Assembly: GCA_007376445.1 (NCBI GenBank)
Contig: VMGF01000002.1
Span: 103,928-167,927, forward strand
DNA length: 64,000 nt
Reading direction: 5' to 3'
DNA from: Parcubacteria group bacterium Gr01-1014_3
GTDB taxonomy: Bacteria; Patescibacteriota; Minisyncoccia; UBA6257; WO2-44-18
Positions 47,901-63,119 of this stretch are shown here, piece after piece. Numbering within the stretch: position 1 is the first letter of the stretch; each line of letters opens with the position of its first letter. Position numbers and translations under genes: made by a program. The notes under the pieces are model-generated. The model did not search any database. It was not told the origin of the DNA and saw only the letters and a program-made list of their open reading frames with translations.

Positions 47901-47913
47901 ATCACCTCCTTGT

Positions 47914-47928
47914 CACGCCAAGGGCGTG
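47914..47928. promoter_or_regulatory. inverted repeat CACGCC-AAG-GGCGTG in the divergent promoter region
   Basis: 6-3-6 dyad between divergent aminotransferase and dehydrogenase genes. Confidence 0.3.
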
Positions 47929-47986
47929 GCTTTCAAAGTTCCGCCCAAGAGTGTATCATTCCTGGCAGATATTTGAAAGGGACAAT

Positions 47987-49081
47987 ATGTCTAAACGTTT
48001 TGTAGTACTTGGCGGCGCCGGAACAATCGGACGAGTAGTGGTGCGCGATCTCTCCGAATCCCGGCCCGGCGATCATGTTATCATTGCAGATTACAACCAA
48101 GAGGCGGCGCAATTCGTGGCGGATACCATTAAGAATCCGGATATAGAAGTCCGTAAAGCGGATGCCCGTCAGCCGGAACTTTTAGCCGGTCTGCTCCGTG
48201 GCTCTGATGTAGTGATCAACTGCCTTCAGCACGACTACAATCTCATGGTGATGGCCGCGGCCCTGGAAGCGGGAACGAATTACGTGGACCTAGGCGGTTT
48301 GTTTACCTGGACCCGCAAGCAATTACGGCTTGATGAAAAATTTAGAAGCGCGGGATTGACGGCCGTGATCGGTGTGGGTTGTTCGCCCGGCATTACCAAT
48401 GTCCTTGCCGCTTACGCGGTAAAGCAGCTGACGAAAGTGAATTCCATAAAAATCCGGATTGGATCAAAAAATTTTAACCAGCCGGATAAAAAACTAAGCT
48501 TTCCATATTCGGCGCAAACGATCATTGAAGAGCTCACCCTGAAACCCTGGGTGTTCCAAGACGGACGGTTTCGCCAAGTATTGCCACGGACCGGCTGGGA
48601 ACAAACCCAATTCGACAAACCAGTGGGACCGGCCTGGACTGTCCGTACGCGACACAGCGAAATTGCCACCCTGCCGGTTAGTTTCAAAAAGAATGGCTTA
48701 CGATTCTGCGATTTCAAGGTCGGTCTTGACCGGCCATTCGTAAAAGAAGTAATGAAACGCTTGCGGAATGGCTGGACAATGCCGGAATTTCAAAAACTGG
48801 TTGCCACGCCTCCAGAACCCAACGACTATGAAATTGTAAGAGTGATGGCCGATGATATGACTATTGATTGCCATTCCCGCTCGCGTCCAGATTGGCGCGC
48901 CAGCGCCGGTGACATCAACACGGCTTGCCCCATCTCCATTGCCGCGCAGATGATCGCGGAGGGCGAGATTGAGCAGCCAGGCGTTTCACCGCCGGAGATT
49001 GCCATTCACCACGAATGCTTCGCCGCTGGTATATTTATCCTCAAACTCCAACTGTGCGGCATGAAAATCGTAATAAATTAA
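47987..49081 (+). CDS. saccharopine-dehydrogenase-like NAD(P)-binding oxidoreductase (carboxynorspermidine/saccharopine DH family)
   Basis: FVVLGGAGTIGRVV Rossmann start (true ATG 47987 with GAAAGGGA RBS), family-like length. Confidence 0.65.
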   Translation: MSKRFVVLGGAGTIGRVVVRDLSESRPGDHVIIADYNQEAAQFVADTIKNPDIEVRKADARQPELLAGLLRGSDVVINCLQHDYNLMVMAAALEAGTNYVDLGGLFTWTRKQLRLDEKFRSAGLTAVIGVGCSPGITNVLAAYAVKQLTKVNSIKIRIGSKNFNQPDKKLSFPYSAQTIIEELTLKPWVFQDGRFRQVLPRTGWEQTQFDKPVGPAWTVRTRHSEIATLPVSFKKNGLRFCDFKVGLDRPFVKEVMKRLRNGWTMPEFQKLVATPPEPNDYEIVRVMADDMTIDCHSRSRPDWRASAGDINTACPISIAAQMIAEGEIEQPGVSPPEIAIHHECFAAGIFILKLQLCGMKIVIN

Positions 49082-49088
49082 AAACTCA

Positions 49089-49118
49089 AAGCCCGATTGC
49101 TTCAATCGGGCTTTTTTG
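49089..49118 (+). terminator. rho-independent terminator
   Basis: aaagcccgattg-cttca-atcgggctttttt. Confidence 0.65.
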
Positions 49119-49154
49119 TTAATATAACGGCGGTTCATTTATAAGGAGACGCGT

Positions 49155-50525
49155 ATGATGTTGCGATCGATTAATCCATCGAATTATAAGGTTGTGGGTT
49201 CGGTTAAGGTCTCGACTCCCAAAGAAATTAGCGACAAAGTTCGCCAGGCTCGTCTTTACCAAAAATATTGGTCGGAAATGGGAGCGGCGATGCGAGTTCA
49301 TATGGTGCGTAAAGCGATGGCCGAATTTGAAAAGCGGAAGGACGAAGTGATCAAGCTGGAATCGATGGAGATGGGCAAACCCATTACCGCGGCAGCCAGC
49401 GACTTCAATGACGCGATGGCTTTCGCCAACTGGTACTTGGACAACGCGGAAAAGTGCCTCGCCGCAGAAACGACTTTCGAGGACGAAAAGGAAATTCACC
49501 GGGTTTACCGTGAACCGCTCGGAGTGGCCGCGGTGATTATTCCTTGGAATTACCCGTTCCTGATGTTCGTCTGGACGGTCATTCCCAATCTGCTGGCCGG
49601 TAACTGCGTGGTTCTCAAGCACTCGGAAGAGTGCCCGCTAATAGGAAAGCTCATTGAAGAAGTGATGCATAAGTACGTTCACGTGAGCGCCTTTTCGGAA
49701 GTTTACGGCGGCGGCGAGGTCGGGATGCTGCTAGTTCGGAACGATATTGGTCTCATTTCTTTTACCGGCAGTACTGCAACCGGGAAAAAGCTTTACGAAA
49801 CCGCCGGCCGGAAGTTCATCCGCGCGGTTATGGAAATGGGCGGCTCGGCTCCCGGAATTGTTTTTGAAGATGCCAATATCGATGAGGCAGTCAAAAGCAT
49901 CTGCACTTATCGTTTGACCAATGCCGGTCAGTACTGCGATGGCCTGAAGCGGCTGATGGTTCATCAGGACCGATTTGAAGAGGTGGTCAGTAAGCTCTCC
50001 AATGCCTTCGCGACCCTGTGGGTTGGTCCGGCCGATCTTGAAAGCACCGAGCTGGGTCCTCTCGTCGCGAAACGACAGCTTGATCTCTTGGCAGCGCAAG
50101 TCGCTGATGCTAAGAGGTTGGAAGCTCGCGTAATCACTGGCGGTAAGTCATTGGAATCTGAGCTTGGGGGCGCGTTTTTCCAGCCCACGCTTTTGACCGG
50201 TGTTACTCCGGCAATGAGAGTCTGGAGAGAAGAGGTCTTTGGTCCAGTTCTGCCGGTGGTAAGGTTTAGAACCGAGGACGAGGCGATCTCAATCGCTAAC
50301 GACACAGTCTACGGACTCGGCGGATATGTTTACACCGCGGACATGAACCGGGCGGAGCGAGTGGCCCGCGCGCTCAAGACCGGCATGGTCAGCATCAACG
50401 GCACGAACTACACGACTCCGTTCAACCCCTTTGGCGGCTGGAAGAACTCCGGCATGGGCCGCGAGCATGGCAAGTACGGCTTCCACGAACTGACCCAAAC
50501 CAAGGTAGTCGCGAGAAATAAGTAA
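49155..50525 (+). CDS. NAD(P)-dependent aldehyde dehydrogenase
   Basis: ALDH family: FTGSTATG, catalytic EMGG.A and Cys region (QYCDGL). Confidence 0.85.
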   Translation: MMLRSINPSNYKVVGSVKVSTPKEISDKVRQARLYQKYWSEMGAAMRVHMVRKAMAEFEKRKDEVIKLESMEMGKPITAAASDFNDAMAFANWYLDNAEKCLAAETTFEDEKEIHRVYREPLGVAAVIIPWNYPFLMFVWTVIPNLLAGNCVVLKHSEECPLIGKLIEEVMHKYVHVSAFSEVYGGGEVGMLLVRNDIGLISFTGSTATGKKLYETAGRKFIRAVMEMGGSAPGIVFEDANIDEAVKSICTYRLTNAGQYCDGLKRLMVHQDRFEEVVSKLSNAFATLWVGPADLESTELGPLVAKRQLDLLAAQVADAKRLEARVITGGKSLESELGGAFFQPTLLTGVTPAMRVWREEVFGPVLPVVRFRTEDEAISIANDTVYGLGGYVYTADMNRAERVARALKTGMVSINGTNYTTPFNPFGGWKNSGMGREHGKYGFHELTQTKVVARNK

Positions 50526-50563: not shown

Positions 50564-50608
50564 TTTCGTAAAATCCTTATTCGCTTATTCGCGCGAATTA
50601 GACCGTAT

Positions 50609-50642
50609 AACACTCCAACATTCTTAAGAATGTTGGAGTGTT
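50609..50642. repeat. palindromic repeat copy A (34 bp perfect: AACACTCCAACATTCTTAAGAATGTTGGAGTGTT)
   Basis: perfect palindrome centred on TTAA; identical core to copy C. Confidence 0.7.
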
Positions 50643-50654
50643 AATTGTACGCGT

Positions 50655-52187
50655 TTATTTTAAATCATCCAGAAGCCCCAATTTTACTAGGCGCGACCGA
50701 ATAGCTCCTTTTGTTCTATTAAATAGTGCGGCAAGATCGGCGACAAGTGAACCACCTACAAAAGATCTTCTTAATCTTTCATCTTGCGTTTCATCCCACG
50801 GCAAATAAGCGCTGGGGTGCTTCTCTCTTATTTTTTCATATGACACAAAATTTTTCTGTGCGGATATAGCCACAGGTTCGCCTTCTGCTGCCACGCTAAA
50901 CCTCTGCGCAGCCTTCTCCGACTGCGCTCGGAACTTTGTATCTTTTTCTAATACTTCTGGATGCACCCGAAACGCGAGCTCATTCCAACCAATAATATGA
51001 AGGCCTGAAAGTCTTCTCACGCGTGAAAGCGCGACATAGCCCTGTCCAAATTCAAAAACATCGCTCAAATCCACCACTGCCTCGTCCAAACTTATACCCT
51101 GACTCTTATGTACGGTAATCGCCCACGCAAGACGAAGCGGTAATTGTGTAATGCGCGCTCGAATTGCGCTATTCTCTTCTACTGTCCAATCCGTTGCCCT
51201 GACTTCAATCCGTCGTCCGTTTCTTGCCCTTACAACCGGACATCCGCTCTGCGCGTCAAATTTTTCAACCACGCCCAACGTGCCATTCACAAACCCTTCT
51301 TTCGGATTATTTTTTGTGAACATTACCGCCGCTCCAACTTTGAGATAGAGTGTCTCAGGCGAAAGACAACCCCTCTTAAGCATGGCAACAATTTTTTCTT
51401 GGCCCTGCGCGGACATAGTAAATGCACGAGGATCACCCGAAAGCTTGGCGAGTATTTCATTATTGACGCGATCCACATCAATATTGTGGGAAAAAAGTTT
51501 CGGCGCGCTATCGGGGATGGCGTGATTTGTAATTTTTCTAGCTTTAATGTGCCTTAAGTGTTCGTCGCCAAAAACGTTGCCGCGAATCGCCGAAAGCACG
51601 GCAAGAAAATCGGCATCGTCCTGTCTATGCTGCTCCTCAAGATAACAGACGACCGGCTTCGCTCGCTCCCAGGCGGGCGAGTCATAGGCAAAACCAGCCG
51701 CCGACTCTCGTATGAGAACATTGTCCGCGTTACTTTCCTCTTCAGCTTTAGAAACTGGCGGTAATTGGAAAAAGTCTCCGACTAAAACAATTTGAACTCC
51801 CCCAAAAGGTTCCTGGTTCCGTTTAATTTTGCGGCAAATAACGTCAATCATGGAAAGTGTTCCGGCGGAAAGCATAGAGACTTCGTCTACTATCAGTACT
51901 TGAGCCCGCTGGATGCGTTTTGTGATATTTCTATTTGATGAGATTTTATCAAGATCGTATTGGCTTAATTTAGTTTTAATGCCTATGCCGCTCCAAGAAT
52001 GAATTGTCATTCCTCCGATATGAGTCGCGGCAATACCGGTTGAGGCGGTAATCGCCGGCTCAATGCCCCGCGCGCGCAAATACGCCACATACTCGTTTAC
52101 TGTATGCGTTTTACCAGACCCAGGTTCGCCGGTCAAAAAAACATTAGCTGCCGTCTTCAAAATTGATAATGCTTGGGATTGGGTCAT
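50655..52187 (-). CDS. PIF1-like SF1B DNA helicase with C-terminal HTH-like extension
   Basis: Walker A GEPGSGKTHTV, Walker B LIVDEVSM, PIF1-family motifs; C-terminal 100 aa extra with DLAALFNRTKGAIRSRLVKLG. Confidence 0.65.
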   Translation of the reverse strand: MTQSQALSILKTAANVFLTGEPGSGKTHTVNEYVAYLRARGIEPAITASTGIAATHIGGMTIHSWSGIGIKTKLSQYDLDKISSNRNITKRIQRAQVLIVDEVSMLSAGTLSMIDVICRKIKRNQEPFGGVQIVLVGDFFQLPPVSKAEEESNADNVLIRESAAGFAYDSPAWERAKPVVCYLEEQHRQDDADFLAVLSAIRGNVFGDEHLRHIKARKITNHAIPDSAPKLFSHNIDVDRVNNEILAKLSGDPRAFTMSAQGQEKIVAMLKRGCLSPETLYLKVGAAVMFTKNNPKEGFVNGTLGVVEKFDAQSGCPVVRARNGRRIEVRATDWTVEENSAIRARITQLPLRLAWAITVHKSQGISLDEAVVDLSDVFEFGQGYVALSRVRRLSGLHIIGWNELAFRVHPEVLEKDTKFRAQSEKAAQRFSVAAEGEPVAISAQKNFVSYEKIREKHPSAYLPWDETQDERLRRSFVGGSLVADLAALFNRTKGAIRSRLVKLGLLDDLK

Positions 52188-52188
52188 T

Positions 52189-52548
52189 TTAATCGAAAAC
52201 AGTTACCTCGCCTTTTTCGTATTTCCCAGTCTCCCATCCGCCATATATAAAATGATCGCCATCCTGGTGAAAGTACAACGCGGTAGAACCGTCAATAATA
52301 AGCTGAAAGCCGCGTAAACCCGATTTTGAAGGGATGATATCTATTCGTTCCGTTGCTTGGAAAAATTCACTTGCTTGATTGGCGACGTCCGAATTAACAC
52401 CAAGCTCGCGCGATAGCCGCTTTACGCCGCGAAGAGGCGATACCCTAAGCAATACCCGCGTCCACCAACTCACACCGCCTTCCTTAAGATTTTTTAAATC
52501 AAATTGTATTTTTTTATTCTCGAAATCGAAATCTTCCATATCAGACAT
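52189..52548 (-). CDS. hypothetical protein, translationally coupled to the helicase
   Basis: stop 1 nt before the helicase start; no motif recognised. Confidence 0.45.
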   Translation of the reverse strand: MSDMEDFDFENKKIQFDLKNLKEGGVSWWTRVLLRVSPLRGVKRLSRELGVNSDVANQASEFFQATERIDIIPSKSGLRGFQLIIDGSTALYFHQDGDHFIYGGWETGKYEKGEVTVFD

Positions 52549-52589
52549 TGGTACATTATGCTAATTCGTAAAGCTGTAAGTCAAGGCTT

Positions 52590-52635
52590 CCAATAAACAC
52601 TCTAACATTCTTAAGAATGTTAGAGTGTTTATTGG
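52590..52635. repeat. palindromic repeat copy B (46 bp perfect, variant with symmetric compensatory changes)
   Basis: ccaataaacactctaacattc-ttaa-gaatgttagagtgtttattgg. Confidence 0.7.
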
Positions 52636-52898
52636 AATGTTTTTATGAATTTTATAAATCGTTCTCCGTAGGGTGAAAGTGAATGAATCACATTCCTGCC
52701 TCGGTATTTTTTGTTTACAAGGCCAGCTTGGACCAATCGCCTAGTATGCTCGGAAATGGTTTTGAAATTTTTATTCAAACTTTTAGCAATTCCATCCAGG
52801 TTAATATCAGGGTTTTTAAAAACTAAAAACAATATATCAATCCGGCAATAATTGGCCACGCCCTTGAAATGTCGTTCGAGTTGTTTCGCGCTTCTCAT
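52629..52898 (-). CDS. ArsR/SmtB-like winged-helix transcriptional regulator
   Basis: 89 aa; HTH region ISEHTRRLVQAGLV followed by wing. Confidence 0.55.
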   Translation of the reverse strand: MRSAKQLERHFKGVANYCRIDILFLVFKNPDINLDGIAKSLNKNFKTISEHTRRLVQAGLVNKKYRGRNVIHSLSPYGERFIKFIKTFQ

Positions 52899-52932
52899 GC
52901 TCCAAATCTTAAAACATTTAGTGTCTTAAAAC

Positions 52933-52966
52933 AACACTCCAACATTCTTAAGAATGTTGGAGTGTT
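52933..52966. repeat. palindromic repeat copy C (34 bp, identical to copy A)
   Basis: seen directly. Confidence 0.7.
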
Positions 52967-52987
52967 TAAATGAATTTTCATTAAGCT

Positions 52988-53716
52988 TTAAAAAATGGAG
53001 GGGTAGCCGAGGTAGTACTTGAGGGTGTGGATCCAGTCTTCGTCTTGGCTGCCTTCGGCTTGTTTACTGCCCAGCATCCATTCCAGGTAGCCGCGGTCGG
53101 TTTGGGCCACGTCCGCGATCTTTTTGTCTTTGTGTTTTCCGAAGTTAAATACTCTGAATAATGATGGCCGGCCGGAAATATCAATCATCTTGGCGATGGC
53201 TTCGGGTTCGGAGAGGCCGGTATCCATCATTTTTTTGAGCAGACGGTTAAAAAGCGCGTGGAGGACTTTCACGTCCCCTTCCGCGTCGTGGGCGTTGGCG
53301 TCTTCCACATCCAGTTCCAAAAAATACCGTAAAAAAGATAAATTGTATTCCGGGATCTGATTCTCCGGGTCTAGTTCCCGGGCCACCCGGAAAGTGCAGA
53401 TCCGCTTCGGGATATTCATTCCCTCGGCTTCCAGGATCGCGCAGTCGAATTTCGCATTATGCGCCACCAGGATTCCCCCATCGGTCAGCTTGGCCTGCAA
53501 GTCTTTCATCGTCGCGCTGTCTTTGAATGGCTCCTTATCCGCCAGCATCTTGTTGGTGATATTGGTAATACTCATGGCCTTTATCGACACCGGAATTGGC
53601 GGCTTAAAATAACCTACTTTAACCCCATCGGAAGTTTTGTAGCAAATCTGACAGAGCCTGTCCTTGGCCACATCATTGCCAGTCGTTTCGGTATCTAAAA
53701 AAATAAGTTGGGGCAT
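52988..53716 (-). CDS. DEDDh 3'-5' exonuclease (DnaQ-like)
   Basis: Exo I FLDTETTG, Exo II HNAKFD, Exo III HDAEGDVKVL. Confidence 0.75.
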   Translation of the reverse strand: MPQLIFLDTETTGNDVAKDRLCQICYKTSDGVKVGYFKPPIPVSIKAMSITNITNKMLADKEPFKDSATMKDLQAKLTDGGILVAHNAKFDCAILEAEGMNIPKRICTFRVARELDPENQIPEYNLSFLRYFLELDVEDANAHDAEGDVKVLHALFNRLLKKMMDTGLSEPEAIAKMIDISGRPSLFRVFNFGKHKDKKIADVAQTDRGYLEWMLGSKQAEGSQDEDWIHTLKYYLGYPSIF

Positions 53717-53745
53717 GCGTTAATTAACTCATTCTACTATTTTCT

Positions 53746-54477
53746 CTATTTTTGCGAAACGCCAAGAGCGGAAATAATCTTATTCCCCATCTCTTCCGAC
53801 CAGTTCGTTATCGGCGAAAGTTCAAAAATGTGGTTTGTAAGTTTGCTAGCCTCGGTTATAAAAATTCCAGTTTCGCCGGTAATTTTCCCGATTTTTCCAC
53901 CCGCCAAAACCAACATTGCCATCACCCGAACATCTACCCCTTTAGTCTTAAAGAATTTAACCAAAAAATCTTTTTGTCGCGCAGTTTGCCAAACGGGCCT
54001 AGGAAGTTCAAAAAAGTTATACCATCCTCTCTTTTTATGCATGTGCCCTGCTTCAAAATCGAAAACACCAGAATAATTTTTAACCTCAAGAATAATTACG
54101 CCCTTGGGACCGAGTAAAAGCCCATCAATATCACCGATGCGCGTATTGGGGATTATATAATTCGGCACATAGATATAGCTGTCGTCCAAAGTTTCCTTTA
54201 ACATGTTAAGGATTTTTTCTTCGCCTTCCTTACCGGATTGAAATCCAGAAATTTTATCGAACAATGGATCTCCGTATTTTCGGCTAATTAAAATTATGAT
54301 TAAGCCGATAGTAGTAACTACCCACAAATATTTTGATTGACGTAAGGTTGGAATCACCAAGGTCAATGCAATCGTTACCATCACGAAGAGTATCACAAGC
54401 AAAACCGCTGTACCCCAAGGTGCATACTTGCGAAGATTTTTCGAGCTATAAGATTCTTGAAATTGGATAATTTTCAT
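53746..54477 (-). CDS. NERD-domain nuclease-related protein, membrane-anchored
   Basis: 2 TM then NERD pattern GDIDGLLLG...VIILEVKNYSG. Confidence 0.65.
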   Translation of the reverse strand: MKIIQFQESYSSKNLRKYAPWGTAVLLVILFVMVTIALTLVIPTLRQSKYLWVVTTIGLIIILISRKYGDPLFDKISGFQSGKEGEEKILNMLKETLDDSYIYVPNYIIPNTRIGDIDGLLLGPKGVIILEVKNYSGVFDFEAGHMHKKRGWYNFFELPRPVWQTARQKDFLVKFFKTKGVDVRVMAMLVLAGGKIGKITGETGIFITEASKLTNHIFELSPITNWSEEMGNKIISALGVSQK

Positions 54478-54483
54478 TTTTTA

Positions 54484-54519
54484 GTTGTTTCGGTATCTAA
54501 AAAAATAAGTTGGGGCATG
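54484..54519 (-). pseudogene. duplicated 5' fragment of the exonuclease gene (MPQLIFLDTETT*)
   Basis: ~33 nt identical to 53684-53716 incl. start codon, then stop. Confidence 0.5.
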
Positions 54520-54521
54520 GT

Positions 54522-55070
54522 TTATTTTGGGTTTGGTTGTTGCTTCTCTGTAAGTTTAATATATTCAACAAGCTTTGCGCCATCAATAAGCTCTATACCA
54601 ACCCTGTTGGCAAAAATTCTAGCCGTATGAATAAATCCATAAGTGAAATAACTGGTGGTGACGAAAATTCCTTTGGCGTCGGGATGATCAGCCTTGAGTG
54701 CCCCGAAGAACTCCCTCACCTGCTGTACGCGCACAGGGTGTTTAAGTCCGTATTTTTTGACCTGAATATAATAAATTTGACTATCCTTCTCTGCCTTCAC
54801 ATCAAATCCACCATCGGCCTGATGAACTCCGCCAATAACCTGAACATTCTCATATCCCATTTTTTTAAAAAGCATACCAATATAATCTTCAAATTCTTCT
54901 GGGTGCAATTTATGTATAAGGTCACCGAGGGTCTTTTGGCTGGCCAGCCACTTCTTATATCGCCTGTAGCGAAAATAGCCAACGATCAATCCAACTGCAA
55001 TGAACGGCACCAAGACATAAACAAAGGGTTTAATTGCGGCCAGCAAGACGGCCTGAGGAAGTTCGATCAT
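54522..55070 (-). CDS. Mrr-like restriction endonuclease domain protein, membrane-anchored
   Basis: TM then Mrr_cat pattern (FE..IG.LF..MGY, QADGGFD, YYIQVKKY, GIFVTTSYFT). Confidence 0.7.
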   Translation of the reverse strand: MIELPQAVLLAAIKPFVYVLVPFIAVGLIVGYFRYRRYKKWLASQKTLGDLIHKLHPEEFEDYIGMLFKKMGYENVQVIGGVHQADGGFDVKAEKDSQIYYIQVKKYGLKHPVRVQQVREFFGALKADHPDAKGIFVTTSYFTYGFIHTARIFANRVGIELIDGAKLVEYIKLTEKQQPNPK

Positions 55071-55092
55071 ATGTATATCTTACTATAAAATT

Positions 55093-55119
55093 TGCGCCCT
55101 CGGCAGGGATCGAACCCGC
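55093..55119 (-). pseudogene. tRNA 3' fragment (T arm GCGGG-TTCGATC-CCTGC + acceptor 3' strand CGAGGGC-G)
   Basis: no matching 5' half (GCCCTCG) upstream; parent tRNA not in window. Confidence 0.5.
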
Positions 55120-55159
55120 AAAATCGGGATAGCCAAACTTAAGCTACTGCCAAGAATTT

Positions 55160-55192
55160 TAAAACCGCCATTGGGCCCAATGGCGGTTTTAG
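55160..55192. terminator. bidirectional hairpin terminator (aaaaccgccattgggcccaatggcggtttt)
   Basis: perfect 12-bp stem. Confidence 0.5.
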
Positions 55193-55350
55193 GACGGAAT
55201 CAGTCGATGTATCACGAACAATCTTTTCTAAGACCCCTCTAAAGCAATCGCGTCAGATTTGTCAGAAAATTAAGATCGTCTGAGTAAGGAAATATTCTAA
55301 TTCTTGAGGTGAGTTGCTCGATTGGTACCTAGCTTTCATCCGACCCATAA

Positions 55351-55716
55351 TCACTTACCAAGTTTGTTGTATTTCGGTTTATATCTCGAAATTTCCGAAG
55401 CCTCAAAATCTTCAGCTTCTTGAGCGTTATCGCAAAGATGATAGCCGAAATGCGTTACGCCTGGCCAGTAATCACCTCGAAGATGGTCAAGCAGCCTACC
55501 TCGGATGCCGTCTTCGCTAACTGCCCTTCCGATGTAAAGAGGTATTAGGCCGCCATCCGTTGTTATCAAGCCGCAATAATAAACACCGATATGGTATGAA
55601 TTCAAATTACGTACGGTATCATCATTGTAGCTATAATGCCCACTATAATCGTTCACCATTATTGTTATTTCATCTCTTCTTATTATTCTCCGGCTCGACG
55701 AACCTTCGCGGCGCAT
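55351..55716 (-). CDS. GIY-YIG nuclease-domain protein
   Basis: GVYYCG...PLYIGRA...R..HL; likely start at the internal Met (MVNDYSG). Confidence 0.5.
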   Translation of the reverse strand: MRREGSSSRRIIRRDEITIMVNDYSGHYSYNDDTVRNLNSYHIGVYYCGLITTDGGLIPLYIGRAVSEDGIRGRLLDHLRGDYWPGVTHFGYHLCDNAQEAEDFEASEISRYKPKYNKLGK

Positions 55717-55865
55717 TAAGAGAAAATGCTCGGTGAACCAGCTGTGGTCACTCTATAATTTTCTAAAATAACGTGGGCTATGTCAAATAGTATTGTGAAT
55801 ATGATGTGTATGATCTGGGGATAATTTTTCCTTGACGGTTTGCCTACGCTTGGTAAATTTACTAT

Positions 55866-56498
55866 ATGCATAACCTACAAATCAAATTATTAAAAATCCT
55901 TGGGAAGATAGATTTTTCCAAAGAAAGCCTGCGGAGTATCGCCAAAATGGTGGGCGAAAAATATCCACAAAAGATAAAGCACCATATTACCCAGTTAGAG
56001 AAAAAGTATCTAATCTCCGTAGACTGGCAGAATAAGCGGATCACAAAGACCGATCCGAAAAAAATGAATAACTCTCCCCTACTCTCGATCCCGATCGTAG
56101 GTATGGCCAACTGCGGCCCAGCCCTGGTCTTTTCCGAGCAGAATATCGAAGGCTTCGTAAAAATTTCCAAAGTGATCCTCGGTCTCAAAGCGATTGGCGA
56201 CTTCTTCGCTATCCGCGCTTCCGGTAATTCGATGAATCGCGCGAAGGTGGCCGGCAAAAGCATTGAAGACGGCGATCTAGTCATAGTTGATCCTCGGCTC
56301 AAAGAACCCCGCAATGGCGACTATGTTCTTTCTATTATCGACAATGTCGGCAACATCAAAAAATTCTTCCGTGACGCCAAAAATAAGCTAGTCATGCTGC
56401 TCTCCGAATCCACCGAAGACTATCCTCCAATCTATATATCCCCTCGTGAAGACTACTTCGTAAGCGGAAAGGTCATCTATGTAATAAAAAAGAGCTAG
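55866..56498 (+). CDS. LexA-like S24 peptidase family repressor (N-terminal HTH + C-terminal S24)
   Basis: ASGNSMN Ser nucleophile region and downstream K; ~210 aa. Confidence 0.65.
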   Translation: MHNLQIKLLKILGKIDFSKESLRSIAKMVGEKYPQKIKHHITQLEKKYLISVDWQNKRITKTDPKKMNNSPLLSIPIVGMANCGPALVFSEQNIEGFVKISKVILGLKAIGDFFAIRASGNSMNRAKVAGKSIEDGDLVIVDPRLKEPRNGDYVLSIIDNVGNIKKFFRDAKNKLVMLLSESTEDYPPIYISPREDYFVSGKVIYVIKKS

Positions 56499-56521
56499 TT
56501 TTCGTTCAACCGATAACTATT

Positions 56522-57415
56522 TTGAAAAAAATGATCCAGCTTAATTTATTTAGCAGTAGGTCATTATTGTATAATGAGTACATGGAGCTGGATCAATATT
56601 TCACTAAGTCTGATGTAGCTAACCGGTGTCTTGAGCTTCTTTATGACAAGCTCCCAGGAATTCGAAATAAGTCCTTTATAGAGCCGTCAGCTGGCAATGG
56701 GTCTTTTTATTCAATTTTGCCAAAATCACGAAGAATTGGCTTAGATATTGCTCCCCAGTCGCCTGATATTAAAAGGGCAGATTTTTTGAGCTGGGAACCT
56801 AAAAGAAGCTCTCAGGATAAATATGTGATAGTCGGGAACCCTCCATTTGGACACCGCTCCAAGCTAGCTATAGATTTTTTTAATCATTCAGCAGATATCG
56901 CAAACACGATTGCTTTTATCGTACCTCGTCAATTCGAAAAATATTCTGTTCACTCAAAATTAAACAAAGACTTTAGACTTATCCACAGCCAAGAATTGGC
57001 CGAAAATTCATTCTACACTCCAAGTGGCAAGGATTTTGCCGTACGATGCGTTTTCCAAGTTTGGACTCGCAATGAAACAGAGCATGAAAACATGCGCATA
57101 CTTGAAGCGCCTCCAATCGTCCACCCCGACTTTGAGATGTACCAGTACAACAACACCCCAGATGCGCTAAAGTTTTTTGATAAAGACTGGGACTTTGCCG
57201 TTCCTAGGCAGGGCTATGAAGATTATACAAGGCGCGAAAAGCATAAAAATCGCTGCGAACTTAATAAGCAGTGGATAATGTTTAAGGTAAAAACGGAACA
57301 GGCTCGAGATAGACTGTTCAATTTTGACTTCTTTTCGCTTGCCAAGAAGAACACGATGGTTTATGGTTTCGGCAAAGCCGACGTCGTAATGGAATACAGC
57401 AAGCGTTATGATTAA
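56522..57415 (+). CDS. type II N6-adenine DNA methyltransferase
   Basis: motif I EPSAGNGSF, motif IV NPPF (VIVGNPPFG). Confidence 0.75.
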   Translation: MKKMIQLNLFSSRSLLYNEYMELDQYFTKSDVANRCLELLYDKLPGIRNKSFIEPSAGNGSFYSILPKSRRIGLDIAPQSPDIKRADFLSWEPKRSSQDKYVIVGNPPFGHRSKLAIDFFNHSADIANTIAFIVPRQFEKYSVHSKLNKDFRLIHSQELAENSFYTPSGKDFAVRCVFQVWTRNETEHENMRILEAPPIVHPDFEMYQYNNTPDALKFFDKDWDFAVPRQGYEDYTRREKHKNRCELNKQWIMFKVKTEQARDRLFNFDFFSLAKKNTMVYGFGKADVVMEYSKRYD

Positions 57416-58082
57416 CTCTTTATTTGAATCTATTCGAGATGACAAACAACTCTATCTAAATGCCCGCGAAGGAAGTGAATTTGAAGATAGGGTTGTTTAC
57501 TATTTAAAAAGCACCCTTGGCCTAACCCGCATCCTAAGACGGGACGTTGTGGCAAAAGACTGGGCGGCAATCAGTAGCCAGCTGGCTAATAAATTTGGCA
57601 CAGAATACCTTAACTTGCCCAATAAAAAGCTTAGAAAAACATTCATCTACCAACCACGCGGAAAACAAGAGTTTCCAGACATTATTGTTTTTAGTGATAA
57701 AAAAGTCATACCTATTGAGATAAAGTTCTCAGCTAATAGCCAGACGAAACCCATGTGGAATAGTAATGTTCCTAGGGCTAATGCTTTTTATATTTTTGGA
57801 TCATATGGGTTACAGGACATAACTTTCTTTTGTGGTGATAGCATCATTAGTCCAAAACACAGGGAAAGGCTGTATGGATTTTTTGATGATATCAAGAAGC
57901 TAGAGGATGAGATCAGAACTAAAATGCCTGAGCTGGATACAACGGACCGAGGATTTACTCCTTATATTAGAGCGGCATTCGATCAAAAAAAGCACAAGGA
58001 TACGGTAGTAACAAACTTCTTCACTCATCCGAAGCGGATTGAGGCAGAGAATTTAGCAATCGAAAAGCTGAAAGCCCTATAG
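57408..58082 (+). CDS. putative type II restriction endonuclease (PD-(D/E)xK)
   Basis: PDIIVF...IEIK motif; overlaps the MTase stop. Confidence 0.5.
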   Translation: MINSLFESIRDDKQLYLNAREGSEFEDRVVYYLKSTLGLTRILRRDVVAKDWAAISSQLANKFGTEYLNLPNKKLRKTFIYQPRGKQEFPDIIVFSDKKVIPIEIKFSANSQTKPMWNSNVPRANAFYIFGSYGLQDITFFCGDSIISPKHRERLYGFFDDIKKLEDEIRTKMPELDTTDRGFTPYIRAAFDQKKHKDTVVTNFFTHPKRIEAENLAIEKLKAL

Positions 58083-58087
58083 GGAGC

Positions 58088-58885
58088 TTATTCAACTCCT
58101 AATGCAGATTTGGCGCGAGCATAATTAGCTTTTCGATCATCTAATCCAGTAAGACCCCCATTAATTGCCTTCGTAAGTCTAACGAAATCTCCACTATCGG
58201 CGATAATATTACAGTTTCGGTTGTTCCAATACCAACCAGCCGAACGAAATGCATCTAATGGCTGCTCAAGCAATTCCGGAAATGCGATCAGATCGATACC
58301 CAGCCCAATACCGCACGCTTTATAATTACTACGGCCAGTTGTCTGGATAACGCCCCGACCTCTATATCGCCATCCGTCACCACTTGCTTCGTCCCCATTT
58401 CCCAAGCGATTACTATAAACGTGGTTTGCGATTTTCTCTGCCTGCTTAGCATAAACGCTGGCACTTTCTGACGTAAAACGACTTGGCCAGGTATTTACTA
58501 GGGCTTGAGCCGAATAATTCAGATTTTCTAAAAATGCGGAATACCCAGCCGATTCGTGAGAAGTTTGAGCAATGAAGGCAGCAATACGAATAGGAGTATT
58601 TATTTCGAACTCGGTTAATACTTTCAATAAATGTGGCAGATACTCGTTACATTTAGACTCCGCTAGGGTAGGAAGAATTTTTCCTAATTGTTCTGCGGTA
58701 ATAAGAACATCGACGCTTTCAAGAATACTCGGCGGTTCAGAACCTGGAATTTGAGGCGTAGATTTAATTGCCGTTTCGCTTATCGAATCATCCGGAGTTG
58801 ATATTGGGGTATTAATGGAAACCGAAGATTTCGGTTTAAGGTACTCCTTCAGAAAATTAATTATGTTTTGTATTATGTATTTCAT
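58088..58885 (-). CDS. GH19 family lysozyme/chitinase-like protein with N-terminal extension
   Basis: FIAQTSHESAGY, RYRGRGVIQTTGRSNY GH19 catalytic motifs. Confidence 0.7.
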   Translation of the reverse strand: MKYIIQNIINFLKEYLKPKSSVSINTPISTPDDSISETAIKSTPQIPGSEPPSILESVDVLITAEQLGKILPTLAESKCNEYLPHLLKVLTEFEINTPIRIAAFIAQTSHESAGYSAFLENLNYSAQALVNTWPSRFTSESASVYAKQAEKIANHVYSNRLGNGDEASGDGWRYRGRGVIQTTGRSNYKACGIGLGIDLIAFPELLEQPLDAFRSAGWYWNNRNCNIIADSGDFVRLTKAINGGLTGLDDRKANYARAKSALGVE

Positions 58886-59087
58886 TTGATTTTTTTATTA
58901 TTTTTAGATTTTTGGTACAAAAAACCCGGATAACTTTTCGCCGGGTTTGAAAAACATGTTTCAGTTTTTCTTTAATCAGAGATGATTCTAGCTTTTCGGT
59001 AATCCCCGATGATGACGAATTGTTATTTATTTTTTGTCAGCTACTGACGCTATATATAACGAGCCAGGGGAGACTTTATTTCATTAT

Positions 59088-59135
59088 CTTCTCCAATTCC
59101 TCTAAAATGCGGACCATGGCGAAGGTGGGGAGTTT
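59088..59135. repeat. cassette-boundary direct repeat copy 1 (~48 bp)
   Basis: 40/40 identical to 60528-60567 then divergent tail gggagttt. Confidence 0.7.
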
Positions 59136-59139
59136 GGGA

Positions 59140-59400
59140 CTAGTGTTTATAAACACTTTGTCGATGGCCGATACTCAAAACGAGAATTATTAATCGGTTT
59201 TTTTCGATCCGGTAAATTATCCTGTATGGCCAAATATGAATGCTAAACTTACCGGCGAGTTCGCCAGTAAGTGGCTGCCCCAGAAATGGATCTTGTTCCA
59301 AGTCCTTAAGCGCTTTTAATACGCCGTCCTTTTTAGCCCTAGGAAGCTTTTGCAGTCTTTTTCTGGCTGATTTTGCGATTATTACGTGATACCTGGACAT
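59140..59400 (-). CDS. relE: RelE/ParE-family toxin
   Basis: 86 aa, MSRYHVIIAKSARKRLQKL... typical RelE/StbE pattern. Confidence 0.7.
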   Translation of the reverse strand: MSRYHVIIAKSARKRLQKLPRAKKDGVLKALKDLEQDPFLGQPLTGELAGKFSIHIWPYRIIYRIEKNRLIILVLSIGHRQSVYKH

Positions 59401-59671
59401 ATCCTTCTTCTTTTAATATTTCATCAAGAGTTGAGTATTGGCCCTTCGCGTATTCGGACTCCCCCTTCTTAATGTCTTTCATTATCAACGGATTATTTAA
59501 TATATCAACAGTCTCGATTAAAGACTGATATTCATCCACAGACAAAACCACCGCTTTGGGACGGCCCTTGTCAGTTAACGTATAGTGCCTGTTGGGCCTT
59601 TGTACGTCTTCCGCAATATCAAAAATTTTCCTGCGCGCCTCTGAAATAGGCAATGTAGTGCTTTTACTCAT
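59339..59671 (-). CDS. Phd/YefM-family antitoxin
   Basis: start at MSKSTTLPISEARRKIFDI (the track's 5' extension is repeat-derived); overlaps the relE start. Confidence 0.65.
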   Translation of the reverse strand: MSKSTTLPISEARRKIFDIAEDVQRPNRHYTLTDKGRPKAVVLSVDEYQSLIETVDILNNPLIMKDIKKGESEYAKGQYSTLDEILKEEGYVQVSRNNRKISQKKTAKAS

Positions 59672-59726
59672 ATGTACATAATAACGTACACCTAGCCGAT
59701 AGGTCAAGTTAGTTATCCACCGCAAG

Positions 59727-59774
59727 TTTCTCCAATTCCTCCAAAATGCGGACCGTGGCGAAGGTGGGGAGTTT
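59727..59774. repeat. cassette-boundary direct repeat copy 2
   Basis: 45/48 identical to copy 1. Confidence 0.7.
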
Positions 59775-59933
59775 CGGTGAGACTTTTGAGTCAAATTAGC
59801 CCTGGGGATAACTATTGACTTTATGTGCCTGTCTTTGATACAATCTAGACAAGATCACCACGAAAAAGGCCCCATAAGGACGAGACCTTATAGGGGCCTT
59901 TTTCTTTTTTAGGGCCGTAAGCATGTATTCAAG

Positions 59934-60164
59934 TTATCTTGAAACAATCTTTCTAATTCCAAATTGGTTAAATTTCTCAATGATTCCTTTTACTAATTCT
60001 CTTTTTAGTCTTGAGTGTCTAGGAATTGTGGTAACGAATCGGCCGTGAACATCCTCTACTTTGTAATGCTTCCTACCAGACTTAACGACAAAACCGCATT
60101 TTTTTGCGGTTTTGATTAGTTCGTCTGAAGAACAATCGGAAGCATTAAGACTTAATTCCTTCAT
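59934..60164 (-). CDS. hicA: HicA-family toxin (mRNA interferase)
   Basis: KKCGFVVKSGRKHYKV...GRFVTTIPRHS. Confidence 0.7.
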   Translation of the reverse strand: MKELSLNASDCSSDELIKTAKKCGFVVKSGRKHYKVEDVHGRFVTTIPRHSRLKRELVKGIIEKFNQFGIRKIVSR

Positions 60165-60492
60165 AAGACGAAATCTTCATTTCTAATTCTCGGCTTCTCC
60201 TCGGGGCTGGGAAAGCGTCTAATTCGTATGCAACACTGACCGGCGGTAAATATGTTGGCATGTACTGAAAAAATTTTTGAGGAACTTCAAGATATGTTTT
60301 TACACAATCATTAACCATCTCTACTAGTTCGGACAGCGTATCCCCCTGAGTAACGCACCCTGGAAAAGAAAGTATTTCAGCAAAAAACCCTCCGTCTTCA
60401 GAGCGGCCAACTTTTACGTTTATTCTCGTAGAAAATTCACTCCTTAATTCCTTAATTCTTTTTATGTCTTTTTTGGTAATCTTTCTCTCCAT
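60145..60492 (-). CDS. hicB: HicB-family antitoxin
   Basis: FFAEILSFPGCVTQGDTLSE (RNase H-like HicB N-domain). Confidence 0.65.
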   Translation of the reverse strand: MERKITKKDIKRIKELRSEFSTRINVKVGRSEDGGFFAEILSFPGCVTQGDTLSELVEMVNDCVKTYLEVPQKFFQYMPTYLPPVSVAYELDAFPAPRRSRELEMKISSYEGIKS

Positions 60493-60518
60493 GTTTATAT
60501 ATTATAGGACGTAGGCCT

Positions 60519-62591
60519 TTAAATCAACTTCTCCAATTCCTCTAAAATGCGGACCATGGCGAAGGTGTCGAGTTTGCAGTATTCGAGCATGTCTTTGCGG
60601 AGTTGGGCTTTATCGATTGTAAGATCGCCACGGGGCGTTGCCCCTCGCGATGACGGGTCTCCGGGCGCAATGACGGAGGAATCGGGGTCGTCCTGCGGGG
60701 CAGGACGGCCGATCAACTTGAGCCAACTGGAGGAGGCGGTGCCGCCTTCTTGGATGGCCAGCTTTTTGTAGGAAAGTTCCGGGGCGAGGACGGGCTGAAC
60801 TTTTTTGATCGAGGTACTGCCCTTAAAATCTTTGTGGACGTAGTGCTGTTTGGTGAAGATGTCCATGAGGTCGTAGGTTCTGGAATTTATTGACTCAATA
60901 AATTCCTTGGCTTCGGGGACGCGCGCGGCGATCTCGGTGTTTCTCGAGCACTCGAAGCGCTTGCTCCAGACGATCAGACTCCCCTTCGGCCCGATCTGCG
61001 ACTGCAGGGATTCCACAAATGGTCGGCTGGGGTCGGTAGCCTGGTCGTGTAAAAATTCAAAGTGCTTCAACTTCGCGCCGAGCTCATCTAAAACATAAAG
61101 CGAGTATTGAAACGGGATCTGCTGATATGGCGAAAACCCGTCGAACATCGGAATGGCGGCCGGGAAAGTTTCATAGTCCACGAAATAAAGAGGATATTTT
61201 AACTGCTCCAACTCTTCTTGTATTTTTATTTTATCTACCAAAATCTGATTCAGCACGAAAGCCCGGATCTGATTTTTCTGCGTGTCGTTGAGTTCCATCT
61301 CCTCCGGAACTTCGTGAATATGAAATTTATTGCCGTCGATCAGCGATTCCAGTTTTTTCTTACTTAAGCCGATGCGGTTAATATCGTGGACGCTGTATTT
61401 CGGCACCTGGGGATTGGAGTGATGAAAAGTCGCGCAGTGGTTAGACCGACCCTTGTATATGCAGGTACAAGACCCGGGCGGTTCTTTATCGCTTGAAAGA
61501 TACTTCAAGGCCTGCTCCATCTCTAAAGCCACTGGTAGGGCGAGTTCATTGATCTCGCGGGTGATATTGTCGCTTTTGAATAGATTAACGAGGTCGAGCG
61601 CGCCCTGGCGGACATATTCCGAGTTGAGGTGCATTAGATTTATCTCATTAATCTTGAGGCCGCACTTTCTTAATAAATTGACCTGGAAAGCGAGATCATA
61701 ATAATGGCGCTTCTTGTCGGTGTCGTTGGAGGCTTTGATTTCGGTGATATTCCAGGCGTCCGCCGATTTGTCGTAGGTCAGCACATCCACCGCGGCGAGA
61801 AAGTTGTCTTTTAGAAATACCGGCTGGAAAATGACTTCTTGTTTTTTAGCGATCAGCTCGGCGGTAAGTTTTTGCGCGGCCTCATCCCGGCCTTCAATCA
61901 GCACACCGCTGGGCCAAATTTTGCGCGCCTCTAACTCCACCTCATTACCGGTTTCGATGATGTGCTTTTCAAAATCGGAAAGCTCCGATTTGTAATAAAT
62001 ATCGGGCTGATGAATTTTGTGCCAGACATTCTTCGGGCACTCCCGGAAAAGGATGTAGTCAGTTTTGGATATAAACATATGGATATTTTTATATTTTCTC
62101 TGTAATCTATCTATCAATTCTCTACAAAATAAGACCGTATTATCAATATTATCATTATAAGCATCTTCGACGGGTGTTTTCTCAAGAGGATACTTGCCAG
62201 ATTCTATAGCCCTTCGAATTTTTTTTAAATAATTTTCAATATCATCATCAATATCTGCAAAACAACGTTTGTAAAAATTTATTAAATTGTGCCTTGTAAA
62301 TGCCTGGACGAATCCAGCGCCTGTTGAATCGAGTGCAATCATTCCCTCTTGTAAGGCAATTGCCTTGAGATAGCATTCTATAGCAAACCCGTAGTTCATA
62401 ATGATACGACTGCTATACCTTATGTTATTTTTATATTTTTCATATAATAAATCGGCGATTTCCTCATTGATCTTGGCGTGGGAGATCCAAAGGAAGGGGT
62501 CTTGAGCTGATTCTTTCCATGCCTCGGCATCGTAAATATCACGAGAAAAATCCTCCGGAGGTTTATCCCAAATTAAATCATCTTCATGCAT
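60519..62591 (-). CDS. large multidomain nuclease-like protein (PD-(D/E)xK + Cys cluster, DUF2779-like; C-terminal DnaQ-like DxE)
   Basis: VDVLTYD...ITEIKAS (D..E.K), CTCIYKGRSNHC, C-terminal LYFVDYETF. Confidence 0.4.
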   Translation of the reverse strand: MHEDDLIWDKPPEDFSRDIYDAEAWKESAQDPFLWISHAKINEEIADLLYEKYKNNIRYSSRIIMNYGFAIECYLKAIALQEGMIALDSTGAGFVQAFTRHNLINFYKRCFADIDDDIENYLKKIRRAIESGKYPLEKTPVEDAYNDNIDNTVLFCRELIDRLQRKYKNIHMFISKTDYILFRECPKNVWHKIHQPDIYYKSELSDFEKHIIETGNEVELEARKIWPSGVLIEGRDEAAQKLTAELIAKKQEVIFQPVFLKDNFLAAVDVLTYDKSADAWNITEIKASNDTDKKRHYYDLAFQVNLLRKCGLKINEINLMHLNSEYVRQGALDLVNLFKSDNITREINELALPVALEMEQALKYLSSDKEPPGSCTCIYKGRSNHCATFHHSNPQVPKYSVHDINRIGLSKKKLESLIDGNKFHIHEVPEEMELNDTQKNQIRAFVLNQILVDKIKIQEELEQLKYPLYFVDYETFPAAIPMFDGFSPYQQIPFQYSLYVLDELGAKLKHFEFLHDQATDPSRPFVESLQSQIGPKGSLIVWSKRFECSRNTEIAARVPEAKEFIESINSRTYDLMDIFTKQHYVHKDFKGSTSIKKVQPVLAPELSYKKLAIQEGGTASSSWLKLIGRPAPQDDPDSSVIAPGDPSSRGATPRGDLTIDKAQLRKDMLEYCKLDTFAMVRILEELEKLI
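60528..60575. repeat. cassette-boundary direct repeat copy 3 = native 3' coding end of the 60519..62591 gene
   Basis: encodes KLDTFAMVRILEELEKLI*. Confidence 0.7.
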
Positions 62592-62686
62592 GTTGGTAGG
62601 CCAATAATACCATAAATTAAGTTATCCAGAGGGTATCGACCGACAGCGCTTTAATTGTTATATTGAACTTATAAATGGCCTCGGCC

Positions 62687-62704
62687 CTCTCCCGCGAAAG
62701 CGGG
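62687..62704. other. GNRA-capped hairpin ctcccgc-gaaa-gcgggag
   Basis: perfect 7-bp stem; no U-tract. Confidence 0.3.
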
Positions 62705-62757
62705 AGTTACTACATTAAAAGATTTGCATTTTAAAAAATTTGTGATAAGATAACGCC

Positions 62758-62830
62758 GGGGTCGTAACTCAACTGGCAGAGTAGCGGTTTTTTAAGCCGA
62801 AGGTTGTGGGTTCAAGTCCCACCGGCCCCA
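62758..62830 (+). tRNA. tRNA-Lys (TTT)
   Basis: GGGGTCG acceptor, D arm ACTC/GAGT, anticodon loop TTTTTAA, T arm GTGGG-TTCAAGT-CCCAC; promoter-like TTGCAT-16-TAAGAT upstream. Confidence 0.8.
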
Positions 62831-63119
62831 TGCCCTTTTACAGGAGGTCAGCCACCTCCTTATATATAAGCTCTCGGCGCGATGCTGGCTATTTTGAGTC
62901 AGCGATAGGAGCGACGACGAAGATGCGCAGGTGCGCTTCGAAGAGGAGCGACAAGCTCGATGACTCAAAATAGCCGCATCCCAAAGGGTTGTGACTAAAA
63001 TGAATTATCGCTACGTCGCTCGTCCTTGAAAGAGACCTCTCTATCTGCATCCTCGCTCCTGGCGCTAATTCATTTGTAGTTCACAACGCGCCAGAGATTC
63101 ATATACAAGGAGGTGGCTA
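62831..63119 (+). other. ~290 nt highly structured non-coding leader (hairpin 62842-62860; 15-bp inverted repeat 62888-62902/62961-62975 enclosing a nested hairpin)
   Basis: long perfect complementarities seen directly; ends at a strong RBS AAGGAGG. Confidence 0.3.

Follow-up and report, generated by a model that had tools for sequence, protein, structure and literature searches.

A probable recombination hotspot for defence genes, rather than a tRNA-Lys island, inside a conserved DNA-processing cluster of Parcubacteria group bacterium Gr01-1014_3

A 64,000-nucleotide stretch of the groundwater-derived genome of Parcubacteria group bacterium Gr01-1014_3 (contig VMGF01000002.1, positions 103,928 to 167,927, assembly GCA_007376445.1; the whole stretch is hereafter the window) carries, at 50570-62757, a dense block of genes for nucleases, for restriction-modification (R-M) and for toxin-antitoxin systems beside a gene for tRNA-Lys, which a sequence-only reading had taken for a single accessory island of about 12 kb. 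We favour, with a probability of about 0.65, a different account, in which the interval is a recombination hotspot or variable defence hotspot inside a conserved Patescibacteria DNA-processing cluster, split in this strain by about ten small, mostly self-contained cassettes of low GC content: HicAB, Phd-ParE, an endolysin, a putative type II R-M pair, nucleases of the GIY-YIG, Mrr and NERD kinds, an ArsR-like regulator, an unknown open reading frame (ORF) and a HEPN domain. Comparison with loci from related genomes (numbered with the prefix L or P) demonstrates that small cassettes have been gained, lost and exchanged at fixed operon junctions, repeatedly and independently, with duplicated gene ends left behind as scars. 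The earlier view holds for the acquired, strain-variable defence, toxin-antitoxin and nuclease genes, but not for DUF2779, ExoX, probably S24 and, less clearly, PIF1, which are backbone.

Gene order among relatives indicates that the genes for the DUF2779 protein and the ExoX-like exonuclease form a conserved Patescibacteria backbone, to which the S24/LexA-like gene probably, and the PIF1-like helicase gene less clearly, also belong; the helicase and S24 are its more loosely associated members. Three loci from Hainich groundwater (L045, L046, L048) have a contiguous DUF2779-ExoX-PIF1 order with S24 3.3 kb downstream, all four genes being 70-71% identical to those of the window; in these loci DUF2779 and ExoX lie 182 nt apart and only 5 nt separate the ExoX stop from the PIF1 start. 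After PIF1 in these three come a toxin-antitoxin pair and then S24, here accompanied by another R-M system (C5 methyltransferase, HinP1I, Vsr). ExoX directly follows DUF2779, at distances of 5-142 nt, in L049, L051, L083 and L090, the DUF2779/ExoX junction being empty (5-182 nt) in these four and in the three Hainich loci. In P0010 and P0030, PIF1 is fused to DUF2779, and superfamily 1 (SF1) helicase and/or S24 genes adjoin DUF2779 in L057, L060, L067 and L098, with S24 near DUF2779 in the last two. Conservation of gene order in relatives, which would speak against an accessory nature, was accordingly found for part of the block (DUF2779-ExoX-PIF1). This backbone is probably a module for DNA-end processing or repair. 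Variants of the association were also seen, namely a Schlafen-like helicase-S24 fusion adjoining DUF2779 (L067, 12014-13993) and a single operon of S24, then a 1524-aa SF1 helicase-nuclease, then DUF2779 (L098, 4732-11491).

In the window 6,802 nt separate the stop of DUF2779 from the start of ExoX, and 800 nt the stop of ExoX from the start of PIF1. The cassette genes in these gaps differ from the host in third-codon-position GC content (GC3), which averages 0.527 (sd 0.05) in the host and is 0.29-0.44 in cassette genes (z-scores -1.7 to -4.9), and GC is 0.39-0.42 across most of 52-60 kb against 0.47 elsewhere in the window; the compositional check proposed with the island thus separates the cassettes from DUF2779, ExoX and S24, which are host-like (Table 1). 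Low-GC3 cassettes are inserted at three points of the backbone, as 6.8 kb between DUF2779 and ExoX, as 0.8 kb between ExoX and PIF1, and as a HEPN domain on the DUF2779 N-terminus. The DUF2779/ExoX junction, empty in some relatives, is differently filled in others, the window, L043, L143 and L130-L132 each being distinct. L043 has 5.4 kb with orf51, Phd-ParE, orf141, an MmeI-type R-M system, orf107 and MazE; L143, whose ExoX is 91.5% identical, has about 2.3 kb with NYN, DpnI-like and NERD genes; and L130-L132 have Phd-ParE followed by another methyltransferase-like gene. The Phd-ParE cassette is common to the window, L043 and L130-L132 at 84-92% nt identity. The L143 NERD, 55% identical to that of the window, sits in the same slot, is also preceded by an ExoX 5′ fragment, and is a mosaic allele between conserved flanks.

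Two further observations concern these junctions. An intergenic element of about 114 nt (window 59802-59915, with a hairpin at 59870-59895; L143 664-776; L045 15274-15331) trails different cassette genes, HicA in the window, NYN in L143 and ParE in L045. Less than 0.4 kb past ExoX, L143 (3500-4718) carries orthologues of window 30961-31716 (87% aa identity) and of the P-type ATPase at 25117-27267, and it follows from this order that L143 lacks or has rearranged some 21 kb of the window (31.7-53.0 kb), a stretch that holds PIF1 and the aldehyde dehydrogenase (ALDH) cluster described below.

At least three cassettes are bracketed by direct repeats of 45-54 nt that copy the end of the adjacent backbone gene. 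The repeat D1, about the last 50 nt of DUF2779, is present three times and brackets HicAB and Phd-ParE, each copy remaining open to its own stop codon, while D3 consists of the opening 36 nt of ExoX together with its start region, duplicated on either side of NERD, whose ATG shares bases with the stop codon of the 14-codon remnant of ExoX (D3 copy 2). In L130-L132 (87-92% nt identity) the DUF2779 end leads to Phd-ParE and then to a second D1 copy, HicAB being missing and the junction lying inside D1; the presence or absence of HicAB is thus bounded exactly by two copies of D1. Similar scars occur in relatives as duplicates of the ExoX 5′ end, of 61 nt in L043 and of 37 nt before the NERD allele of L143, and as S24 3′-end duplicates of 75 and 182 nt in L045. 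The fragment boundaries vary from event to event (36, about 42 and 61 nt; 43 and 75 nt), and this argues against a single fixed crossover site. D1 and D3 lack dyad symmetry and are direct coding repeats. Successive insertion, as claimed for the supposed island, has thus left its scars, but the repeats are ends of protein genes and not of a tRNA.

A third repeat, the palindrome D2, was found neither elsewhere in the window nor in the fetched relative loci. It lies 35-48 nt upstream of the start codons of the winged helix-turn-helix (wHTH) gene and orf119 and also after PIF1, and could serve as an operator for the ArsR-like regulator as well as a terminator. D1 was considered as a dif/Xer site and D2 as the R″/R′ boxes of attC, both rejected as giving partial matches only by inspection, with D1 devoid of a dyad. 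A further gene-end scar was noticed in L045 (13866-14593), where PIF1 has its C-terminal helix-turn-helix (HTH) tail detached as an ORF of its own (100 aa), split off by a chimeric ORF of 109 aa whose last 14 residues, with 139 nt downstream, are a copy of the S24 gene end.

Several findings sit uneasily with the hotspot account. The GC3 of PIF1 is low (0.427), and in L143, the closest relative, the gene does not adjoin ExoX, so that its place in the backbone is uncertain. S24 precedes R-M genes both in the window and in L045, so that it could belong to a mobile S24-R-M unit, and a LexA-S24-methyltransferase fusion in L142 also counts against assigning it to the backbone. No repeats flank the central 4.6-kb block that runs from GH19 to Mrr. 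D1 copies A and B share their left base and a GA-to-CC change seen in no full-length copy of the gene, as a common attP-like site would give, so that a recombinase encoded outside the window may be involved. Finally, a search of 80 metagenome loci and L043-L047 yielded no extra DUF2779 3′ copies, D1 stacking being confined to the lineage made up of the window and L130-L132. The L142 fusion is in itself an unusual protein, of 510 aa (1409-2941, minus strand), in which LexA_DNA_bind, S24 and an N6/N4 methyltransferase are joined.

The account advanced originally was of a classical integrase-mediated island at tRNA-Lys, formed as one tRNA-targeted insertion followed another, its integrase having been lost or lying outside the window; we consider it very improbable and largely refuted. 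The block does adjoin tRNA-Lys, whose identification stands, its cargo is of low GC content, and it contains a genuine 3′ fragment of a second tRNA. However, elements that target tRNA genes lie 3′ of their target and this block is on the 5′ side, and no second copy of the tRNA-Lys 3′ end was detected in the window even with 2-3 mismatches. The tRNA-adjacent gene, DUF2779, is moreover backbone and keeps its position with or without the tRNA: L043 retains the order orf86-tRNA-Lys-DUF2779 (95.6% nt identity over the tRNA) but holds other cargo deeper in the block, and in L039-L042 (91-97% nt identity at CSP) orf81 is directly beside DUF2779 with no tRNA-Lys. The tRNA is a variable neighbour, not an attachment site, and the claim that it anchors the island fails; synteny around it showed variable cargo, as had been supposed, but a conserved DUF2779. 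In agreement with the earlier failure to see an integrase, scans of every island ORF, and of all ORFs of 150 aa or more in the 64-kb window, gave no recombinase, integrase or transposase domain. The 27-nt fragment had been ascribed to the 3′ end of a different tRNA, and this proved right: it is unique in the window, its 22-nt core is exact in six viral contigs, in all six of which it is the tRNA-Arg(tct) 3′ end, with homology ending at the start of the T-stem, and its acceptor strand is that of the L044 tRNA-Arg(tct), matches that make it a genuine tRNA-Arg(UCU) 3′ fragment. Rfam (E<=10, 54900-55500) gave it no tRNA match, as expected for 27 nt. Yet no intact tRNA-Arg exists within the window, and cassette edges coincide with protein-gene ends. 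Placed after the GIY-YIG terminator hairpin, the fragment is either an old att remnant brought in with a cassette or the broken end of imported DNA.

An alternative resembling integrons or integrative mobile elements exploiting Xer (IMEX), in which a recombinase encoded elsewhere or a host enzyme inserts integrase-less cassettes at sites in the DUF2779 3′ and ExoX 5′ ends, each cassette supplying a replacement gene terminus, would explain the common boundary and variant of D1 A and B, the open frame that every copy keeps to its own stop, the translational coupling of NERD to the displaced ExoX leader, and the position of the most recent cassette, HicAB (not present in L130-L132), closest to the gene, an arrangement like that of attI-proximal insertion. 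It nevertheless seems unlikely, in view of boundaries that vary between independent events, repeats with neither dyad symmetry nor attC-like or dif-like architecture, no recombinase gene nearby, a D1 core that is absent from viral contigs, and the zero extra D1 copies in the loci surveyed. That the block is a degraded prophage, retaining a repressor, a methyltransferase and an endolysin, draws on PHROG matches of GH19 to phrog_181 (E 2e-84), of S24 to the phage repressor phrog_4 and of the methyltransferase to phrog_5172, but is highly improbable: Pfam, PADLOC and PHROG scans revealed no gene for capsid, terminase, portal, tail or integrase, backbone genes lie between the supposed prophage genes, which are in mixed orientations, S24 has host-like GC3 and an orthologue in L045, GH19 gave one weak viral locus only, and no related intact phage with GH19, methyltransferase, endonuclease and GIY-YIG in order was found. 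Repeats such as D1, D2 and D3 are of the kind that confuses assemblers, but a mis-assembled or chimeric contig of this metagenome-assembled genome (MAG) is scarcely credible, as contigs from other assemblies are 100% identical over 57690-60310 (L128), 59098-60557 (L129) and DUF2779 to CSP (L140), and relatives L130-L132, L043 and L143 share the architecture despite their divergence. The identity over 57690-60557 means that the arrangement there is no assembly artefact.

Within the hotspot account, insertion by homologous recombination with displaced gene ends as homology arms, to which we give slightly less than even odds, is favoured because boundaries differ, the window has no recombinase and there is precedent in the literature: toxin-antitoxin islets devoid of mobile-element genes can spread through homologous recombination at flanking core genes (PMC13617665), and R-M-bearing genomic islands occur in Patescibacteria, as do competence and pilus genes (PMC12455944). 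Cassette DNA would come from related Parcubacteria and enter chiefly through homologous recombination in the conserved genes on either side. Now and then a one-sided or illegitimate join would leave a displaced gene-end fragment, which would then act as a portable homology arm for stacking (as at D1), swapping, deletion or allele replacement (as in the mosaic L143 NERD). A more adventurous proposal, which we regard as quite unlikely, is that cassette stacking in Parcubacteria is integrase-independent or driven in trans, with the DUF2779 3′, ExoX 5′ and S24 3′ ends serving as portable attachment or homology sites. Were it correct, defence and toxin-antitoxin cassettes of one or two genes would be captured, stacked by an anchor gene and exchanged between strains, in a functional analogue of the integron, and in a bolder form the operon's own Cas4-like nuclease, exonucleases and helicase may take part in capture.

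Table 1. Features of the block and its repeats, in window coordinates
Feature	Coordinates	Strand	Remarks
D2, 34-nt perfect palindrome, three copies	50609-50642, 52596-52629, 52933-52966		brackets wHTH and orf119-PIF1
PIF1-like SF1B helicase	50655-52187	-	PF05970 E 1.5e-34; C-terminal HTH tail
orf119, family unassigned	52189-52548	-	part of 0.8-kb ExoX/PIF1 insert
ArsR-like wHTH	52629-52898	-	part of 0.8-kb ExoX/PIF1 insert; GC3 of insert genes 0.37-0.42
DEDDh ExoX-like exonuclease	52988-53716	-	RNase_T and ExoX-like_C; Pfam and NCBIfam matches; GC3 0.638
D3 copy 1	53681-53725	-	spans ExoX start
NERD nuclease cassette	53746-54477	-	PF08378 E 1.4e-17; GC3 0.406
D3 copy 2	54483-54527	-	displaced ExoX 5′ end, 14-codon mini-ORF
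Mrr-type (type IV-like) restriction endonuclease cassette	54522-55070	-	Mrr_cat PF04471 E 5e-27; PADLOC mREase_IV and PDC-S02
tRNA-Arg(UCU) 3′ fragment, T-arm and acceptor, 27 nt	55093-55119	-	22 nt upstream of Mrr start
GIY-YIG nuclease cassette	55351-55716	-	weak Cho match E 0.0026; GVY..x10..YIG..R..E..N motif by eye; GC3 0.393
S24/LexA-like repressor	55866-56498	+	PF00717; GC3 0.555
N6-adenine-type methyltransferase	56522-57415	+	PADLOC MTase_II E 1.8e-55; NPPF motif
Putative PD-(D/E)XK endonuclease, 224 aa	57408-58082	+	PD..x13..EIK motif; phrog_18119 (function unknown)
Orphan GH19 phage-type endolysin	58088-58885	-	PF00182; phrog_181 endolysin E 2e-84; GC3 0.327
D1 copy A	59083-59136	-	displaced DUF2779 3′-end fragment; IMK* tail like relatives' gene ends
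Phd-ParE/RelE toxin-antitoxin cassette	59140-59671	-	ParE_toxin E 1e-12, PhdYeFM E 5e-14; Pfam and TIGR
D1 copy B	59722-59775	-	displaced DUF2779 3′-end fragment, own stop codon
HicAB cassette, full extent	about 59776-60522		
HicB-HicA toxin-antitoxin genes	59934-60492	-	Pfam HicA E 2e-7, HicB-like E 1e-3 (weak); GC3 0.29-0.34
DUF2779 protein, 690 aa	60519-62591	-	PF11074 E 7e-42
DUF2779 body (Cas4-like PD-(D/E)XK and DEDD exonuclease)	60519-62078	-	conserved backbone gene; GC3 0.629
D1 copy C	60523-60576	-	functional 3′ end of DUF2779; 54-nt repeat family
HEPN-fold N-terminal extension fused in frame to DUF2779	62079-62591	-	GC3 0.316, z -4.3
tRNA-Lys(UUU)	62758-62830	+	ARAGORN and Rfam

The gene calls were reproduced by ORF listing and by Pfam, PADLOC, NCBIfam and PHROG scans, in which all gene families named in the sequence-only reading were recovered, GIY-YIG by its motif and a weak Cho match. 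Both toxin-antitoxin pairs (ParE/RelE-Phd and HicAB) are neighbouring small genes of matching type II families. The putative endonuclease gene overlaps the end of the methyltransferase gene by 8 nt, the two having GC3 values of 0.39-0.42, and its product had no match in Pfam, NCBIfam, PADLOC or PDB. The S24 protein reaches 65.4 bits on the LexA model TIGR00498, below the equivalog cut-off of 111, and is LexA-like in architecture only; no LexA-box-like palindrome was seen by inspection 5′ of its gene. From their domain families, the cargo genes would function in anti-phage defence and addiction.

The DUF2779 protein deserves separate consideration. Its family combines a Cas4-like PD-(D/E)XK nuclease with a DEDD exonuclease and is quasi-essential in JCVI-syn3.0 (PMC13621843, PMC3985635). 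We found 925 homologues, mostly of about 495 aa and mostly from Patescibacteria (annotated as Patescibacteria or Minisyncoccota); an exact look-up of the full 690-aa protein returned no identical record. It resembles the DUF2779/UU173 family (MMSYN1_0389 in JCVI-syn3.0) in its PF11074 match (Table 1), its two-nuclease architecture, and the Cys cluster and acidic residues that are invariant in the DUF2779 alignment, and differs in the addition of an N-terminal domain of foreign composition and HEPN-like predicted fold, and in being set among ExoX, PIF1 and S24 partners. This extension, the first 171 codons, is missing in L039-L043, where the gene begins at the equivalent of 62078, and its homologues are mostly free-standing proteins of 180-200 aa. 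An AlphaFold2 model of it (pLDDT 90.6) retrieved HEPN structures as all of its top five Foldseek matches in PDB (probability 0.89-1.0, TM-score up to 0.70), and Pfam HEPN was matched at E 0.001 by two of four extension homologues, so the region is predicted to fold as a HEPN domain. The catalytic Rx4-6H RNase motif is not conserved in the family alignment, in which no conserved Arg precedes the His by 4-6 residues; only His101 is nearly invariant, the window sequence reading ..TRHNL.. at that point. A 171-aa ORF upstream of the L045 DUF2779 was compared as a possible counterpart and found unrelated. DUF2779 is quasi-essential in JCVI-syn3.0 yet has no known function, and genomic-context clues to its role come from the PIF1 fusion, from neighbours that include ExoX, other SF1 helicases and S24/LexA-like genes, and from the optional HEPN domain.

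Other structured elements were noted near tRNA genes. Directly 3′ of tRNA-Lys, at 62850-63118, lies a 269-bp element resembling a miniature inverted-repeat transposable element (MITE), whose terminal inverted repeats (AGCCACCTCCTTATATA...) measure 17-35 nt and which also contains a palindrome; it forms a single long hairpin (z -7.85), its right arm provides the ribosome-binding site of orf86, and it is missing from L043, where 20 nt separate the tRNA from the next ORF. A GC-rich double hairpin, GGCCTCGGCC / CTCCCGC-GAAA-GCGGGAG, is present at 62677-62706 of the window, in L043 (4536-4565, minus strand) and in L045 (15786-15815, minus strand); conserved in three genomes between different genes, its stems showing compensatory changes, it is possibly a small RNA or a portable terminator. 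Some 50 kb away (region 5505-5795), a second copy of the tRNA-Met(cat) 3′ end plus about 10 nt of downstream sequence (5561-5590) occurs at about 5768-5795, the copies flanking a structured insert of ~207 bp (fold z -2.9); this is a true direct repeat of a tRNA 3′ end round a tiny element, precisely the kind of mark that the sequence-only reading had sought in the block.

Elsewhere in the window, 9911-12776 encodes adjacent isocitrate lyase and malate synthase (the glyoxylate shunt) and an amidase, unusual metabolism for an ultra-small bacterium of the candidate phyla radiation (CPR). A cluster of high GC content at 45067-50525 (GC 0.51-0.54; GC3 up to 0.66, from the three genes measured) comprises two class-III aminotransferases, a saccharopine dehydrogenase and the ALDH, and may be a separately acquired metabolic island. 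An exact look-up of the ALDH protein gave no identical record, and its best genome matches reach 61% identity in a Saccharibacteria MAG and 47-50% in Rhodospirillaceae, Gracilibacteria and Yersinia, none of them syntenic; the ALDH was discarded as a synteny anchor, its best match being the non-syntenic Saccharibacteria one.

The hotspot account corrects an annotation trap, in that nuclease-rich genes beside a tRNA resemble one mobile island, when a third to half of the block, depending on whether PIF1 is counted, would be a conserved Patescibacteria DNA-processing module. It would make the DUF2779/ExoX junction a reusable landmark for defence cargo in ultra-small CPR genomes, and gene-end duplicates round small cassettes a tractable signature of defence-gene acquisition that proceeds without obvious mobile-element machinery.

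Among known systems, integron arrays and Xer-dependent pdif/IMEX modules share with this locus tiny recombinase-less cassettes, often of toxin-antitoxin type, each with a repeated site and with the newest nearest the anchor gene; they differ from it in having IntI, attC hairpins or a dif-like dyad, where this block has coding direct repeats with variable boundaries. Islands targeted to tRNA genes carry a tyrosine integrase and attL/attR sites derived from a repeat of the tRNA 3′ end. Like such integrative islands and prophages, the block has accessory cargo by a tRNA, a tRNA 3′ fragment (T-arm to acceptor) and restoration of a target gene end on insertion, here that of a protein gene; unlike them, it has no integrase in the window, lies on the 5′ side, has no tRNA-Lys repeat and a tRNA-Arg fragment unpaired in the window, and its actual repeats are protein-gene ends. 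The features that define a tRNA-anchored integrase island, an integron or a prophage are thus not those found here. The closest known kind is the defence hotspot between conserved genes, whose flanks, variable cargo and atypical defence or addiction genes are all present: as in the core defence hotspots of Pseudomonas, E. coli and Vibrio and in toxin-antitoxin islets (PMC13617665), conserved flanks enclose a site that is empty or otherwise filled, the cargo of R-M, toxin-antitoxin and stand-alone nuclease genes is of atypical composition, and no mobility genes lie inside. What distinguishes this hotspot is that its flanks are a functionally linked nuclease/exonuclease/helicase operon that is itself split, that the cassettes are of one or two genes, several of them bracketed by 45-54-nt copies of the end of the flanking gene, and that the host belongs to the ultra-small Parcubacteria.

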